This document shows positions 8,819 through 28,559 of a DNA stretch of 32,000 bases, in pieces. The stretch is taken from positions 15,365 through 47,364 of the forward strand of contig NZ_PJIZ01000018.1 of the NCBI RefSeq assembly GCF_021596505.1, written 5' to 3'. The DNA is from Nostoc sp. CMAA1605. GTDB lineage: Bacteria; Cyanobacteriota; Cyanobacteriia; Cyanobacteriales; Nostocaceae. A program made the translations under genes and the position numbers. Below the pieces are notes generated by a model. It did no database searches. It saw nothing but the letters and a program-made list of their open reading frames with translations, and had not been told where the DNA came from. The number at the start of each line of letters is the position of its first letter. Within the stretch, counting starts at the first letter, position 1.

Positions 8819-8891
8819 TGAAAGTAAGCTCGTTGGATAGAGCGATCGACTCATAATCGATAGGTTGTAGGTTCGAGTCCTGCACTTTCTC
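8819..8891 (+). tRNA. tRNA-like element with CAU anticodon, non-canonical (possible pseudo-tRNA)
   Basis: Manual cloverleaf: acceptor tgaaagt/actttct (6 bp plus a U1-U72 mismatch), D arm gctc-gttggata-gagc, anticodon arm atcga-ctCATaa-tcgat, a 5-nt variable loop, and T arm gtagg-ttcgagt-cctgc. Position 8 is A and position 14 is G, instead of the near-invariant U8 and A14. Confidence 0.45.
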
Positions 8892-8950
8892 CCCCGTCCG
8901 AAAGGACACTACTCTGTAAAAGTAGCAAATTCAACGAATTTGATTTGATT

Positions 8951-12636: not shown

Positions 12637-12712
12637 AGTTCGTAGTAAGGACTTTAGTCCTTTTCTGTTCGCGGAACATCTCGGAAAGAGAACTAAAGTT
12701 CTCACTACAAAC
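12637..12712. mobile_element. MITE-like small dispersed repeat, copy 2 (shorter)
   Basis: agttcgtagtaaggactttagtcc ... gagaactaaagttctcactacaaacc. It has the same termini as the element at 6661-6781. Confidence 0.6.
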
Positions 12713-12808: not shown

Positions 12809-13267
12809 ATGGAACCAGTAACCTTAACAGCCGTAGGAACTGCGATCGCTACTATAGTTTTAACTAAGGCTTTAGAAAAAACAGGCGAAAAGCTGGGAGA
12901 AGCAGCAATAGAAAAAAGTAACGAGTTAATCGCCAAGCTACGCCAGAAAAATAAGCTGCCCTTGTTAGCCAATACGTCACAGGAAGACACACAGCAGCCG
13001 TTAGATTATGGTCAAGCCTTGTTGGAGTTGAAAGCCGCAGCCGATAAAGATGACGATATTGCTCAATCGGTGCGGGAAGTAGAAGCGACAATCAATCAAG
13101 ATAAATCCCCCAAGGCTGAGGAAATTCAAAAATTAGCCGCAGAAATTCAAGCGCAGCCATCAATTGTTAATAACTTTGCCAAGTTAGCAGAAAGTATCCA
13201 AGCTGAAAAAGGGGCAATGGTTGCCCAACAAATTACAATTGGGGAACAGCACAACACATACAACTGA
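12809..13267 (+). CDS. 152-aa all-helical N-domain protein; in frame with the downstream NB-ARC ORF and ended by a single TGA
   Basis: ATG at 12809. There is a hydrophobic small-xxx-small helix (EPVTLTAVGTAIATIVLTKAL) followed by charged helical sequence. The stop at 13265-13267 is the only interruption of a frame that continues into 13337..15931. Confidence 0.65.
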   Translation: MEPVTLTAVGTAIATIVLTKALEKTGEKLGEAAIEKSNELIAKLRQKNKLPLLANTSQEDTQQPLDYGQALLELKAAADKDDDIAQSVREVEATINQDKSPKAEEIQKLAAEIQAQPSIVNNFAKLAESIQAEKGAMVAQQITIGEQHNTYN

Positions 13268-13336
13268 CTACAGTCGCCCAGACAGGAACGGGTAAAGTTA
13301 AATCCTGAAATACCGCAAAATTTACCCCTGAGTGGA

Positions 13337-15931
13337 GTGGTGAAATTTGTCGGACGTGATGAAGAACTGCAACAACTCCATAAACTATTGCAGGAAAATA
13401 ACCAAGTGCTGACTGAGCGTAGTCGAAGTGTAGCCATTGCGGCTATTTTGGGAATGGGTGGACTGGGTAAAACAGAACTCGCCTTGCAATATGCCATGAT
13501 ACAGCACGAAAACTACAAAGGTGGACTGTGCTGGTTACAGGCGAAAGTTGAGGACTTTGGCGTTCAAGTGGTGCAGTTTGCCAGAACTCAGCTTGATTTA
13601 AAGCCACCAGAAGAATTTGATTTACCTGCACAAGTACAATACTGCTGGCGGAATTGGCGTGAGGGTAATGTGCTGCTGGTGGTGGATGATGTTACAGATT
13701 ACCAGCAAATCAAACCTTACCTACAGGGCGCATCTTCCAGATTTAAAGTGTTGATGACTACGCGCCAAAAGTTGGGTGCAGCCATCAAGCAATTATCTTT
13801 AGATGTATTACAACCAGATGCAGCGTTGGAGTTGTTACGGTCTTTGCTGGCAAAAACACCAGGGCGAATTGAGAGAGAATTAGATGTAGCAAAACAGTTG
13901 TGTGAATGGCTGGGGTATTTGCCTTTGGGTTTAGAGTTGGTGGGGCGATATCTGGCGCGGAAGCAGGATTTGTCTATATCGAAAATGATGGGGCGATTAA
14001 AGGAAAAGGAAAAGCCGCTAGAACAACCTGCACTTGTCAAGCCAGAAGCCGATATGACAGCACAAAGGGGAGTGCAAGCAGCCTTTGAGTTGAGTTGGCA
14101 GGAATTAGGAGAGAATGATAAATTATTAGGCTGTGTACTCAGTTTATTTGCATCTGCACCCATACCTTGGGAATTAGTAGAACAGAACTTAACAGAGGAA
14201 TATGAGGGCGAGTTAGAGGAAATTCGGGATGATAAATTACTGAATCTGCATTTACTCCAGCGCAAAGGTGAGGGAATTTATCAACTACATCCCTTACTGC
14301 GGGAATTTTTCCAATCTAAGTTTACAGGTTTAGAGCAAGCAGAGGAATATAAGGGATGGTTTTGTCAGGTAATGGTAGCAGTTGCTCAAGAAATTCCTCA
14401 GACTCCTACCCTTGAGGAAATTAACGCTGTTTCCCTTGCCATACCACACATAGCTGAAGTAGCAAACAATCTCATTCAATACGTCAGTGATGAAAATTTA
14501 ACTTTGCCTTTCGTCGGCTTGAGTCGCTTTTATAAAGGACAAGGATTATATACCCAAGCCGAACCTTGGTGTCAGCAGTGTTTATCAACACTACAAAACC
14601 GCTTGGGAGACAATCATCCCGATGTCGCCACTAGCCTCAACAACTTGGCTGAAGTCTACTATTTCCAAGGAAAGTACGACCAAGCCGAACCCCTGTATCT
14701 CCAAGCTTTAGCACTCGATAAACGCCTGCTGGGAGACAATCATCCCTCAGTCGCCACTAGCCTCAATAACTTGGCATTACTCTACAATTCTCAAGGAAAG
14801 TACGACCAAGCCGAACCCCTGTTTCTCCAAGCTATAGAACTCTATAAACGTCTGCTGGGAGACAACCATCCCGATGTCGCCACTAGCCTCAACAACTTGG
14901 CACTATTCCACGAATCCCAAGGAAAGTACGACCAAGCCGAACCCCTGTATCTCCAAGCTTTAGAACTCAGACAACGCCTGCTCGGAGACAATCATCCCTA
15001 TGTCGCCAGTACCCTCAACAACTTGGCATTACTCTACAAATCCCAAGGAAAGTACGACCAAGCAGAACCCTTGTATCTCCAAGCTTTAGAACTCAGACAA
15101 CGCCTGCTCGGAGACAATCATCCCTATGTCGCCAGTACCCTCAACAACTTGGCATCACTCTACTATTCCCAAGGAAAGTACGACCAAGCCGAACCCCTGT
15201 ATCTCCAAGCTTTAGCACTCAGACAACGCCTACTGGGAGACAATCATCCCGATGTCGCCACCAGCCTTAACAACTTGGCATTACTCTACTATTCCCAAGG
15301 AAAGTACGAACAAGCCGAACCCCTGTATCTCCAAGCTTTAGAACTCTATAAACGCCTGCTGGGAGATAATCATCCCCTTGTTGCCCTAAGCCTCAACAAC
15401 TTGGCATTACTCTACTATTCCCAAGGAAAGTACGACCAAGCCGAACCCCTGTTTCTCCAAGCTATAGAACTCTATAAACGTCTGCTGGGAGACAACCATC
15501 CCGATGTCGCCACTAGCCTCAACAACTTGGCACTATTCCACGAATCCCAAGGAAAGTACGAGCAAGCCGAACCCCTTTTACTCCAAGCTTTAGAACTCTA
15601 TAAACTCCTGCTGGGAGACAATCATCCCAATGTCGCCCTAAGCCTCAACAACTTGGCTGCACTCTACCGTTCCCAAGGAAAGTACGACCAAGCCGAACCC
15701 CTGTATCTCCAAGCTTTAGAACTCTATAAATGCCTGCTGGGAGACAATCATCCCAATGTCGCCCTAAGCCTCAACAACTTGGCATTACTCTACCATTCCC
15801 AAGGACTTTACCAGCGAGCCGAATTTCTGTATTCCCAAGCTTTGAATATTTTGGAGCGCAGTTTAGGAGGGAATCATCCTCATACTGTGACTGTGCGTGA
15901 GAATTTAGCAAATTTACGCGATTATCTCTAA
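13337..15931 (+). CDS. NB-ARC (STAND) NTPase with C-terminal TPR array; frame is open from 13268
   Basis: Walker A [11 protein letters not shown], Walker B LLVVDDV, MTTRQ, and a GLPL-type motif [11 protein letters not shown], followed by 10.5 TPR units of 42 aa. The listed GTG start has no well-spaced SD. The first ATG lies inside the P-loop. Confidence 0.85.
   Translation: [864 protein letters not shown]
14603..15928 (+). repeat. 126-nt tandem coding repeat (42-aa TPR units, 10.5 copies) with very high inter-unit identity
   Basis: Units of the form [42 protein letters not shown]. The stretch 14821-14931 is identical to 15451-15561, an offset of 630 nt (5 units). Confidence 0.9.
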
Positions 15932-25913: not shown

Positions 25914-28559
25914 TTAATTCAGGCAAGTTTTTAAACGTTGTGCCAATACTTGTACATGAGGTTCTAACACAAACGAGTAATGATTTCCCGACACATCAAT
26001 AATATTGATTTCCTCTGCTGCCATTACAGAAAATAACTCTACCCAAACTAAGGTCGGGTCAGGAGCCATAATATGTTTTTCTCTAGCACGAAAAACAGTG
26101 ACTTTGCCAGGATACGGTTGTCTTTGATAGCTATAAGTAGCTTTTAAAGTCCCTACCAATACATCTAAAATACGGCGATTATTTTGACGTTCTACATCAG
26201 GCGGAAAGATTCTGGCTGTTCTAGCTTTATCGATGATGTAGTTAATTTTTGCTTCTAAAGATAAATGCTCAATTTCTGCTGGCGTAACTAAATTATCTTG
26301 ACCAAACATCCCCCCAAATACCCTAGAAAGTACACCCACTAAATAAACATCATCAATGGGTTTTTGTTTATCTAATAGAATGGGAACATAAGAGTCAAGG
26401 ATAGCTAACAAAGAAACTTCCTGTCCTTGTCTTTTTAGTTGTTGTGCTACCTCATAGGCGACAACTCCGCCAAATGACCACCCACCTAATTTATAAGGCC
26501 CTTGGGGTTGAAATTCTCGGATAGTTTTAACATAGAGGCTAGCCATGTCTTCCACTTTAGTTAAAGGTTCTTCATCCCCATAAAAACCTTGAGCTTGTAA
26601 GCCATAAAATGGGTGTTCGTTACCAATATAATGAGCTAATTTAAAATAGCAAAGAACATGACCACCGGCAGGATGAATACAAAAGAAGGGCTGATGAGTT
26701 CCTTGTGGTTGAATGGGAACTAAAGGGGAATGATGAATTTGGCTATCATTATTTTGAATTACTGTAGCTAAATCTGTGATAATTGGATTTTTTAATAGTG
26801 TTGCTAAAGGTATTTCTTTTCGGAAATTTTCCTCGATTTTGGCAATTAAATGTAATGCTTTGAGAGAATCACCACCAAGAGCAAAAAAGTTATCTGTCAC
26901 CCCAATTTGTGGTAAATTTAAAATCTCTGCCCAAATTGTCACTAATTGTGATTCTACTTGATTGCGAGGAGCGATAAAATCACTGCTTTCTGAAAAGTGA
27001 GAAATATCCGGTTTGGGTAAAGCTTTTCTGTCTACCTTACCACTAGGAGTGAGGGGTAAAGCTTCCAGCGTCACAAAAGCGGCGGGAATCATAAAATCTG
27101 GTAATTTAGCTTTGAGAAAATCACGCAGATGCTGAATTTGTGGTGTTTCTGAGTTGTAGGTAATATAGGCAACGAGTTGTTTTTCTAAATTGCGATCGCT
27201 ACGTGTGATAATCACAGCTTCTCTAACTTCTGGATGTAAAGCCAAGACATTTTCAATCTCGCCAATTTCAATCCGATAACCGCGAATTTTGACTTGATAA
27301 TCTACTCTACCTACATATTCAATATTACCATCAGGTAAATAACGCCCTAAATCACCAGTTTTATACAGACGTTCTGATGTAAATTCGCTACTTCTAAATG
27401 GGTTAGGAATAAATTTTTCCTGAGTTAATTCGGGACGATTCCAATAACCACGCGCCACACCTACACCACCGATGTAAATTTCCCCCACAACGCCAACATC
27501 AACAGGTCTTAAATCTTCATCAAGAATGTAAATTTGCACGTTAGCAATGGGACGACCGATAGGTACAGTTTTTAAATTACTGTGCTTTTGACACTGCCAA
27601 AAAGTGACATCAATAGCTGCTTCGGTAGGGCCATAGAGATTATGTAATTCACAATTAAAATGCTCAAAGAAGCGATTTTGTAAATCTACAGGTAAAGCCT
27701 CCCCACTACAAATTACTCTCCTAATGGAAGTACATTTTTCTACACCACGACTAGCTAAAAATATTTGCAGCATGGAAGGGACAAAATGCAATGTCGTAAT
27801 TTGCTCTTGAGTAATAATATTAATCAGGTAATTACTATCTCGATGTCCCCCAGGTTGAGCTATAACCAACCGCGCACCCGTTAATAAAGTCCAGAAAAAT
27901 TCCCAGACGGAAACATCAAAGCTAAAAGGAGTTTTTTGTAAAACACTATCTGTAGAATTGAGTTGATAGGTTTCCTGCATCCATAGCAAGCGATTACATA
28001 TACCTTTATGGGTGTTCATTGCACCCTTGGGTTTACCAGTAGAACCAGATGTGTAGATGACATAAGCTAGATTCTCTGGTTGTATATCACTTTGAGGATT
28101 AGTATTTGGTTGGGTAGAAATTTTCTCCCATTCTGTATCTATATAAATAGTTTGAGCTTGATTTTCAGGGATTGTATTCACTAACTTTTCTTGGGTTAGT
28201 AATACCTTGACCTGAGAATCTTCTAGCATATAAGCTATGCGTTCTTGGGGATATTCTGGGTCAATAGGTACATAAGCACCACCGGCTTTAAGAATTCCCA
28301 ATAAACTCACGACCATTTCTAAGGAACGTTCTAGACAAACACCTACTAATGTTTCTGCTTTAACGTCTAGTGTTTGTAGATAATGTGCTAGTTGATTGAC
28401 TCTAAAATTTAATTCTTGATATGTTAATTGTTGGTTTTGAAAGGTGATGGCTATGGCGTTGGGGGTGCGTTCTGCTTGTGCTGTAAATAGTTCGTGTAAG
28501 CTTTGAGATAGGTTGTAATCTCTGTATGTGGCGTTGGGATTTATGGGTGTGATTTGCAT
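25914..28559 (-). CDS. mysE: NRPS-like enzyme (adenylation - PCP - thioesterase), MAA cluster tailoring ligase
   Basis: 881 aa with A-domain cores [32 protein letters not shown] and [15 protein letters not shown], the PCP motif GGDSLKA, and the thioesterase motif GWSFGG. It lies immediately downstream of mysABC. Confidence 0.85.

Follow-up and report, generated by a model that had tools for sequence, protein, structure and literature searches.

An invariant UGA-C stop codon followed by a conserved hairpin links effector-type and NTPase modules in cyanobacterial NLR genes: a candidate programmed readthrough cassette

Why does one stop codon part two halves of what otherwise reads as a single gene? 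The question is raised by a locus in a 32,000-nucleotide stretch of DNA from Nostoc sp. CMAA1605 (assembly GCF_021596505.1, contig NZ_PJIZ01000018.1, positions 15,365 to 47,364), referred to herein as the window, whose own coordinates are used throughout and whose features lie on the plus strand unless stated otherwise. A small open reading frame (ORF; 12809..13267) starts with ATG, encodes an effector-type protein of 152 aa (coding part 12809..13264) and ends with a TGA at 13265-13267, and the same frame then continues into the body of a NOD-like receptor (NLR) of the STAND class of NTPases (signal transduction ATPases with numerous domains), which is annotated from a GTG at 13337 to a stop at 15929-15931 (13337..15931). 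A sequence-only reading of the window had described this layout, two same-frame ORFs split by a TGA with NB-ARC and then TPR domains in the second, and had offered a freshly inactivated NLR, a stop-created two-gene system or a leaky-stop gate as explanations. The layout is indeed as described, and it is kept in frame in 77 of 79 homologous loci. Comparative evidence from the stop context, the reading frame and an RNA hairpin favors the leaky-stop gate, and we propose that the TGA is probably a programmed readthrough site.

The first line of evidence is the stop itself. A search of 5.8 billion proteins with the small protein, termed the N-protein here, returned 154 close homologues, all of which are stand-alone proteins of ~90-199 aa (mostly ~140-153) with no fusions, and a profile search of 1.84 billion cluster representatives returned 367 hits, nearly all of 120-160 aa, only four of which, all distant members, are fused to other modules. 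The hosts of the homologues are mostly Nostocales, with some Coleofasciculus and Limnofasciculus, and several genomes contain more than one paralogue. In 77 of the 79 homologous genome loci that were fetched the small ORF ends with TGA and the frame runs on for 300-1300 codons into a STAND NTPase, while the remaining two are decayed copies. These 77 loci together with the window form a set of 78 junctions, in which the stop is TGA in all 78 and the following (+4) base is C in 77 (13265..13268 in the window), within a conserved context of TGA-CTR-CAG-TCG-CC. As a control, the 3' stops of the same NTPase genes are TAA in 35 cases, TAG in 16 and TGA in 9, with TGAC in 1 of 60, and TGAC ends 7 of 268 other long ORFs in the fetched loci. 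Wei and Xia (2016; PMC5289835), with reference to Poole et al. (1995), document UGA followed by C as an inefficient termination signal in bacteria, and it is this leaky context that the homologues conserve. No version of the junction with a sense codon was found among either the 154 close homologues or the 367 profile hits. One apparent fused homologue with a tryptophan at the junction (P0076, L083:169-765) was rejected, as the DNA has TGA at this position and the fusion is an artefact of the genetic code used by the gene caller; this public metagenome gene call, which reads TGA as Trp, is a possible source of error when fused homologues are sought. The family is multi-copy and turning over, as seen on one contig where two TGA cassettes lie less than 10 kb apart (L085:4004 and 9648), the second of which is decayed and has 25 open codons.

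The second line of evidence is the reading frame beyond the stop. Translation of the window shows that the post-TGA frame is open until 15929-15931, and the in-frame linker between the stop and the first GTG (13268..13336) carries in its second half the segment IPQNLPLSG, a conserved N-terminal segment of the NB-ARC module. The spacer, defined as the sequence from the TGA to the first conserved NTPase motif, was compared in 53 NB-ARC-class and 24 NACHT-class loci. Frame 0 contains a stop in none of the 77 spacers, compared with all 77 for frame +1 and 68 for frame +2. Spacer lengths are 75, 78, 81 or 84 nt, or else 138, 141 or 144 nt, such that every indel is a multiple of three and the frame has been kept through at least five independent 3n indels. 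The ratio of nonsynonymous to synonymous diversity (pN/pS) is 0.30 in the small ORF and 0.32 in the body. In the NB-ARC class the ten spacer codons 5' of the usual GTG candidates have a pN/pS of 0.31 versus 0.25 for the next 30 codons, and in the NACHT class 21 spacer codons (..DDWREVCREILAERRKLTTNP) have 0.48 versus 0.50 for the body. The first ~12 codons after the TGA behave differently, with a pN/pS of ~1-1.7 and a synonymous diversity (pS) that is halved, which points to constraint at the nucleotide or RNA level. The stop is thus directly followed by a conserved open frame-0 ORF, in which coding constraint is seen past these first ~12 codons (pN/pS 0.31-0.48), as would be expected of a readthrough extension. 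In relatives of the NB-ARC clade with fused TIR, PIN, effector-associated (EAD) or MmeI N-terminal domains the spacer segment is internal to the protein, and the same is true of other relatives that have an N-terminal amyloid-like motif of their own. Hence the segment is part of the translated module, even though at these junctions it is out of reach of any start codon.

Where, then, might the NTPase be started? The sequence-only reading found no convincing start for the downstream part of the window gene and its specifics are borne out: reading in frame from the TGA, an ATG is first met at codon 63, as the Met inside the P-loop GMGGLGKT, and the first GTG (13337) directly abuts a GGAG with zero spacing. 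The homologues have no conserved start either, as the first in-frame ATG, GTG or TTG falls anywhere from codon 1 to codon 147. Four genome loci (L022, L057, L062 and L072) have no in-frame ATG, GTG or TTG between the TGA and Walker A, three metagenomic loci (L104, L116 and L133) likewise lack a canonical start before Walker A, and in all seven the ORFs are intact at 660-1195 codons. No conserved start codon or Shine-Dalgarno (SD) sequence was found within or beside the hairpin described below anywhere in the junction set, and a consensus scan gave no promoter-like site between the small ORF and the body. Three other routes into the NTPase were considered and rejected. A +1 frameshift of the prfB type and reinitiation at an overlapping YTG both lead into frames closed by stops, and the SD-like GGAGG in the hairpin loop of the NACHT class has no start codon at a usable distance.

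The third line of evidence is a conserved RNA hairpin that includes the stop codon (13265..13300), as given by an RNAalifold consensus with covariation. In the consensus UGACU pairs with AGUYA ~35 nt downstream and an inner 5-bp helix pairs GYCYN with NRGRY. In the window the outer helix joins 13265-13269 (UGACU, stop included) to 13296-13300 (AGUUA) by five pairs, and the inner helix, which begins 8 nt after the stop, is formed by 13276-13280 (GCCCA) with 13289-13293 (CGGGU). Over the 78 sequences 97.9% of cells are paired, and sliding the partners brings this down to 46% or less. Exchanges of the CG/UA/UG, CG/UA and GC/CG kinds are part of the covariation, and none of 500 shuffles matches the observed score. 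A synonymous Pro change (CCC>CCU) covaries with an Arg>Gln change (CGG>CAG), and with few exceptions TTA (Leu) and TCA (Ser) are the only codons found to pair with the G of UGA; it would be difficult to account for such covariation and codon restriction by selection on the protein. A further 46 distinct junctions were collected from metagenomes with a search pattern that left the 3' strand of the hairpin free, and here 230 of 230 inner-helix cells are paired, versus at most 44% when slid.

The junction also behaves as a portable unit. Among the close homologues five types of tail at the C-terminus of the N-protein are combined with at least four types of body (NB-ARC-TPR, two types of NACHT-HEAT-NCC-H, and NB-ARC-DUF7779 with a phycobilisome-protein-like domain) on either side of a constant junction. 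When metagenome contigs were scanned with the junction motif alone, 80 stretches were obtained, of which ~65 are real junctions, each with an upstream ORF that ends at the TGA and a same-frame NTPase, and ~46 of them are distinct junctions additional to the genome loci. Their upstream ORFs belong mostly to the same N-domain family with a still wider range of N/Q/G-rich tails. One is a TIR domain (L116; Pfam TIR_2, 3.9e-16), four are putative esterases of the alpha/beta-hydrolase/DUF676 type (L097, L114, L131 and L135), and a sixth is similar in sequence to these putative esterases without a Pfam hit (L119). Downstream, the cassette precedes NB-ARC-TPR, NACHT-HEAT and other bodies. TIR and esterase-type domains are classical N-terminal effector domains of NLRs, and with such ORFs in front of the junction the cassette sits exactly at the boundary between the effector and the nucleotide-binding oligomerization domain (NOD). 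An unusual sensor domain for a STAND NTPase is found in two of the TGA-cassette NLRs (L072:5436-7421 and L133), where a phycobilisome-protein domain (PF00502) follows NB-ARC and DUF7779 as the C-terminal "sensor" in place of TPR or HEAT repeats.

From this comparison of sequences we consider it probable that UGA-C at the effector/NOD boundary is a site of programmed, low-frequency readthrough that would yield a free effector together with a rare fusion, at a ratio tuned by the hairpin. At the weak UGA-C most ribosomes would stop, and their product would be the 152-aa effector-type protein on its own, ending in the variable N/Q/G-rich tail. A smaller share would pass the UGA, which would probably be read by a near-cognate tRNA (tRNA-Trp, for example), and go on in frame to give a full-length NLR of ~1040 aa that bears the same effector and tail at its N-terminus, with the predicted junction-spanning sequence GAMVAQQITIGEQHNTYN-X-LQSPR, where X, the residue decoded at the UGA, would be W, C or R. 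The hairpin, with its inner helix 8 nt past the stop, would set or tune the frequency. Readthrough itself, the identity of the inserted amino acid and a stimulating role for the hairpin are all things we infer, and they stand apart from the invariance of the stop and its context, the conservation of frame, the coding constraint on the spacer, the start-less loci, the covariation of the hairpin and the portability of the cassette, which are observed. As reported for Anabaena PCC 7120, in which reporter assays for stop-codon readthrough exist, readthrough increases when the repressor TrcR is deleted (PMC10272220). The ratio of effector to fusion could therefore, as a conjecture, respond to stress, and the frequency of readthrough might rise under translational stress or infection.

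Several points weigh against programmed readthrough. It is derived from comparative evidence, and in the NB-ARC class, the window included, GTG or TTG candidates are present at codons 20-27 in every locus, which makes independent initiation possible for the window gene. At -6 to -10 kcal/mol the short hairpin is weak, with z-scores of -0.1 to -1 that are no better than those of shuffles, and so the structural claim rests on covariation, which itself is partly confounded by shared ancestry and coding constraints. In the window the inner helix has only four pairs (13276-13279 with 13290-13293) plus one A-C mismatch, and the minimum free energy fold of this single sequence lacks the outer helix. 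The window copy may also not be fully functional, given a 24-nt insertion in front of its P-loop. Finally, apart from the selenocysteine insertion sequence (SECIS), we know of no 3' structure in bacteria that stimulates readthrough.

The best of the alternatives is an ordinary two-gene operon, which we hold to be unlikely. Here the products would be separate, the NTPase would be started at a GTG, TTG or non-canonical codon by translational coupling or reinitiation, the shared frame would be the relic of an ancestral fused gene, and the hairpin would have some other purpose, for instance in mRNA processing or stability, in coupling, or as a recombination joint for swapping modules. Annotation pipelines do call two genes, the GTG/TTG candidates at codons 20-27 of all NB-ARC-class loci are there to be used, and a constant junction between shuffled modules would also suit a recombination joint. 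Cyanobacteria often initiate without an SD sequence. Moreover, the usual arrangement for Bell and NLR genes is one of separate cistrons a short distance apart (Dyrka et al., 10.1101/2020.01.06.895854). However, a relic would not be expected to keep TGA-C (77/78), nor its frame through at least five 3n indels, nor to be free of stops in frame 0 only. The operon likewise leaves unexplained the seven loci without a canonical start before Walker A and the protein-level constraint on the segment 5' of the candidate starts, and it has no conserved start or SD sequence in or beside the hairpin to call upon, while the frames that a +1 slip or reinitiation at the overlapping YTG would enter are closed by stops. 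The stop-created two-gene system of the sequence-only reading thus agrees with the annotation but fails to account for the conserved frame, the constraint upstream of the starts and the start-less loci.

It is very improbable that the UGA is read as selenocysteine, with the hairpin in the role of a bacterial SECIS element. A UGA directly followed by a conserved hairpin is the layout of bacterial SECIS, but the junction region has no match in Rfam, SECIS models included, even at E values up to 10, there are no Cys-containing homologues at the UGA position, and this position lies in a variable interdomain linker rather than at a redox site. In addition, the literature reports that the Cyanobacteria lack the selenocysteine (Sec) trait. 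Last, a recently inactivated pseudogene or a base-calling error, as might be read from a stop within an otherwise open NLR-like frame and from the 24-nt insertion of the window copy, is scarcely credible and the freshly inactivated NLR of the sequence-only reading is refuted, since the invariant TGA-C, with the same TGA in 77 other independent assemblies from many genera and in ~46 metagenomic junctions besides, excludes such events and both parts are constrained (pN/pS as above).

Returning to programmed readthrough, what would the two products do? The N-protein of the window (WP_236141726.1, 100% identity) begins MEPVTLTA..., with a Glu at position 2 and a hydrophobic N-terminal helix, MEPVTLTAVGTAIATIVLTKAL. 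A first AlphaFold2 (AF2) model built from 40 close sequences was unusable, with a predicted local distance difference test score (pLDDT) of 47, while a second built from 111 diverse sequences gives a seven-helix bundle for residues 1-135 with a pLDDT of 71. Residues 133-151 have a pLDDT below 50 and are predicted to be disordered. This C-terminal tail, the EKGAMVAQQITIGEQHNTYN region (13205..13264), is N/Q/G-rich and hypervariable in type among loci, and it is a candidate amyloid-signaling motif. Five tail types occur among the close homologues, including AMVAQQITIGEQHNTYN, FQGNTFTGTNNF, GGIAGQSINIGTYNN and NLNQAQNITINQTNTF, and many more are seen in metagenomes. Searches of the N-protein against Pfam, NCBIfam and PDB sequences gave only noise and no family match, and a Foldseek search of the model against the PDB gave no significant neighbor, with a best E of 2.6 and TM scores below 0.31; HeLo, MLKL and coiled-coil (CC) domains are not matched, an Rx-CC hit at E 3.9 being noise. 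A HeLo, MLKL or CC fold was dropped on this basis, with the reservation that the model has a pLDDT of 71. The N-protein does have the traits of the Bell type, being small (152 aa, where ~120-140 aa is typical) and helical, with a hydrophobic helix at the N-terminus and, as Glu2, the acidic residue expected at position 2-3, and its first 50 residues match the effector of a canonical pair (L084) with an hhalign probability of 95.5%. The HeLo/Bell resemblance proposed in the sequence-only reading therefore survives in part: the size, the N-terminal helix with Glu2, the disordered N/Q/G-rich tail and the 50-residue homology to an effector all stand, but the relation to HeLo, MLKL or CC domains finds no support in Pfam, PDB or Foldseek. 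We infer that the N-protein is "Bell-like" from its size, N-terminal helix, tail, genomic context and partial homology to a canonical effector. Three distant proteins (P0264, P0252 and P0201), all without the cassette, are rare true fusions of the N-domain, with a NACHT-like NTPase that has a C-terminal multi-pass membrane region, a dynamin-like GTPase and HEAT repeats as the respective partners. In P0264 the natural fusion runs from N-domain through a FQGSTFVNPTFNF tail to NTPase, and together these proteins show that the N-domain serves as an N-terminal module on several kinds of NTPase.

The canonical pair L084 is an instructive relative. Its 153-aa MEPVTLTA... protein ends with TAA, and after a 4-nt gap a separate ATG opens the NLR in another frame. 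The amyloid-like N-terminal motif of this NLR (ITVGRITQIVNQG) echoes the tail of the effector (ETINQIVIKGVQV) and is followed by the segment P.NLPLSGV.KFVGRE, which is the Bell/BASS arrangement of Dyrka et al. In the TGA-type loci, including the window, there is no NLR-side copy of the motif between the TGA and NB-ARC and no conserved start, and relative to PQNLP the effector tail sits where L084 has its NLR-side motif. It is possible, and we put this forward tentatively as more speculative than readthrough itself, that the UGA-C and its 36-39 nt hairpin form a portable recoding cassette by which an NLR templates its own pool of free effector via identical prion-like tails, with no need for a second, co-evolving motif gene. 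On this view the activated full-length NLR would oligomerize, its N-terminal tails would nucleate an amyloid-like fold, and this fold would then convert the abundant free effector with the identical tail, such that a single codon stretch would supply both halves of a Bell/BASS-type motif pair. The effectors served by the cassette would be Bell-like, TIR or lipase-like. Such templating fits how extremely the tails have diversified, given that each would automatically be matched to itself, as well as the orphan Bell motifs and the natural fusion P0264.

The body of the window gene is an NLR-like STAND NTPase. NB-ARC (~13403-13966; Pfam E 2.2e-14, residues 46-233 of the post-TGA frame) contains the Walker A motif GMGGLGKT (13451-13474, as seen in translation), and LLVVDDV (Walker B) and MTTRQ are both present. 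The C-terminal repeat domain is an array of ten TPR_12 units (~14510-15907; Pfam E = 3.7e-190), and the body also passes the NCBIfam model for FxSxx-COOH TPR proteins. The effector-type ORF is in frame with this body but severed from it by the TGA, and the two would be on one chain only given readthrough. The 24-nt in-frame insertion of the window copy (13407-13430) adds LTERSRSV just 5' of the NB-ARC beta1 strand and P-loop and is not found in three close orthologues. Its 18-nt core, ACTGAGCGTAGTCGAAGT, recurs at unrelated sites in two Nostoc loci (L014:1081-1098 and, on the minus strand, L064:743-760), and the insertion resembles the very small repeat elements that are dispersed in genomes of Nostocales. 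Upstream, a terminator-like hairpin (12647..12662) 3' of an O-methyltransferase gene suggests that the small ORF and the NTPase body are transcribed together as a separate unit. The neighbors are ordinary genes, for the O-methyltransferase, an SPFH protein, a uracil phosphoribosyltransferase (UPRTase) and an amine oxidase. Elsewhere in the window, a protein with AMP-binding, PP-binding and Thioesterase domains (25914-28559, minus strand) is a stand-alone, single-module enzyme resembling nonribosomal peptide synthetases, and an Rfam scan of the whole window detected a single RNA gene, tRNA-Met (CAT) at 8819-8893, which is away from the junction.

The orthologue in the model organism Anabaena/Nostoc sp. 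PCC 7120 is of particular value, as its small protein (BAB75480.1) is 95% identical and has an NB-ARC/TPR gene downstream, making the readthrough idea directly testable. It has Q for G at ...ITIQEQHNTYN (P0003). The PCC 7120 pair (L081; BA000019.2, 4562649-4575107) is annotated as two genes, and different pipelines place the NTPase start at 70 or at 82 nt after the stop. From the accession numbering and the description "similar to kinesin light chain" the pair is probably all3781/all3780, and the induction of all3780 on nitrogen step-down depends on SigC (PMC4390870).

NLRs, genes for effectors with amyloid motifs and the leakiness of UGA-C are all known; what is new is their combination as a conserved, portable recoding cassette, and the literature that we searched gave no account of readthrough, or of a stop within the frame, at NLR or Bell loci of bacteria. 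If our proposal is true, it would represent conserved, family-wide programmed stop readthrough in bacterial chromosomal genes with a dedicated cis-element. To our knowledge programmed readthrough in bacteria is very rare outside selenocysteine and phage Qbeta. It would also be a new wiring of NLR immunity or cell death, with an effector and an effector-NLR fusion made from one frame at a fixed ratio, and it would account both for "orphan" Bell-type C-terminal motifs without an NLR partner and for the free diversification of the tails. It is also probable that arbitrary internal GTG or TTG starts have been assigned to hundreds of NLR genes in cyanobacteria.

How does this locus compare with known systems? 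With bacterial SECIS it shares a UGA and an adjacent conserved hairpin, but it differs in having no Rfam match and no Cys homologues, in its linker position, and in coming from a phylum reported to be without the Sec trait. Like the autoregulatory site of prfB (release factor 2, RF2), it has a weak UGA-C, here proposed as a point at which ribosomes either terminate or recode; in prfB the recoding is a +1 frameshift and an SD sequence lies upstream, whereas here frame +1 meets a stop in every spacer and frame 0 alone stays open. Also comparable are the viral and phage readthrough sites, such as Qbeta coat/A1 at a UGA, gag-pol of murine leukemia virus (MuLV) with its 8-nt spacer and pseudoknot, and the UGA-C with 3' stem-loop of alphaviruses and coltiviruses. 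Common to these and to the cassette are a UGA with a +4 C, a structure ~8 nt downstream and, as proposed here, two products that share an N-terminus at a fixed ratio. In contrast to the viral cases, the cassette belongs to a multi-copy chromosomal family of bacteria, its helix is only 5+5 bp with the stop inside the outer helix, and its readthrough is deduced from comparison among homologues.

With respect to the protein products, the proposed logic is that of fungal HET-S/NWD2 and HELLP/PNT1, in which the oligomerized NLR acts as the template for a C-terminal motif on another protein, a pore-forming or other effector. The fungal systems use two genes and two co-evolving copies of the motif, while here one codon stretch would suffice via the proposed readthrough, and the N-protein has no fold similarity to HeLo by Foldseek. 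Also close are the Bell/BASS amyloid-signaling gene pairs beside bacterial NLRs (Dyrka et al., 2020, bioRxiv 10.1101/2020.01.06.895854) and Bab/Agp of E. coli (10.1101/2024.11.07.622273). As in Bell/BASS, the gene just upstream of an NB-ARC or NACHT NLR, and collinear with it, codes in these filamentous cyanobacteria for a short helical protein with a hydrophobic N-terminal helix (Glu2) and an N/Q/G-rich C-terminal tail. Unlike Bell/BASS, the NLR of the window has neither an N-terminal copy of the motif nor a start of its own, and it shares its frame with the effector across UGA-C and the hairpin. Half of the 117 Bell C-terminal motifs of Dyrka et al. (10.1101/2020.01.06.895854) have no NLR partner, and the paired-motif screen by which BASS was defined would miss loci of the TGA-cassette type, in which a single tail would take the part of both members of the pair.

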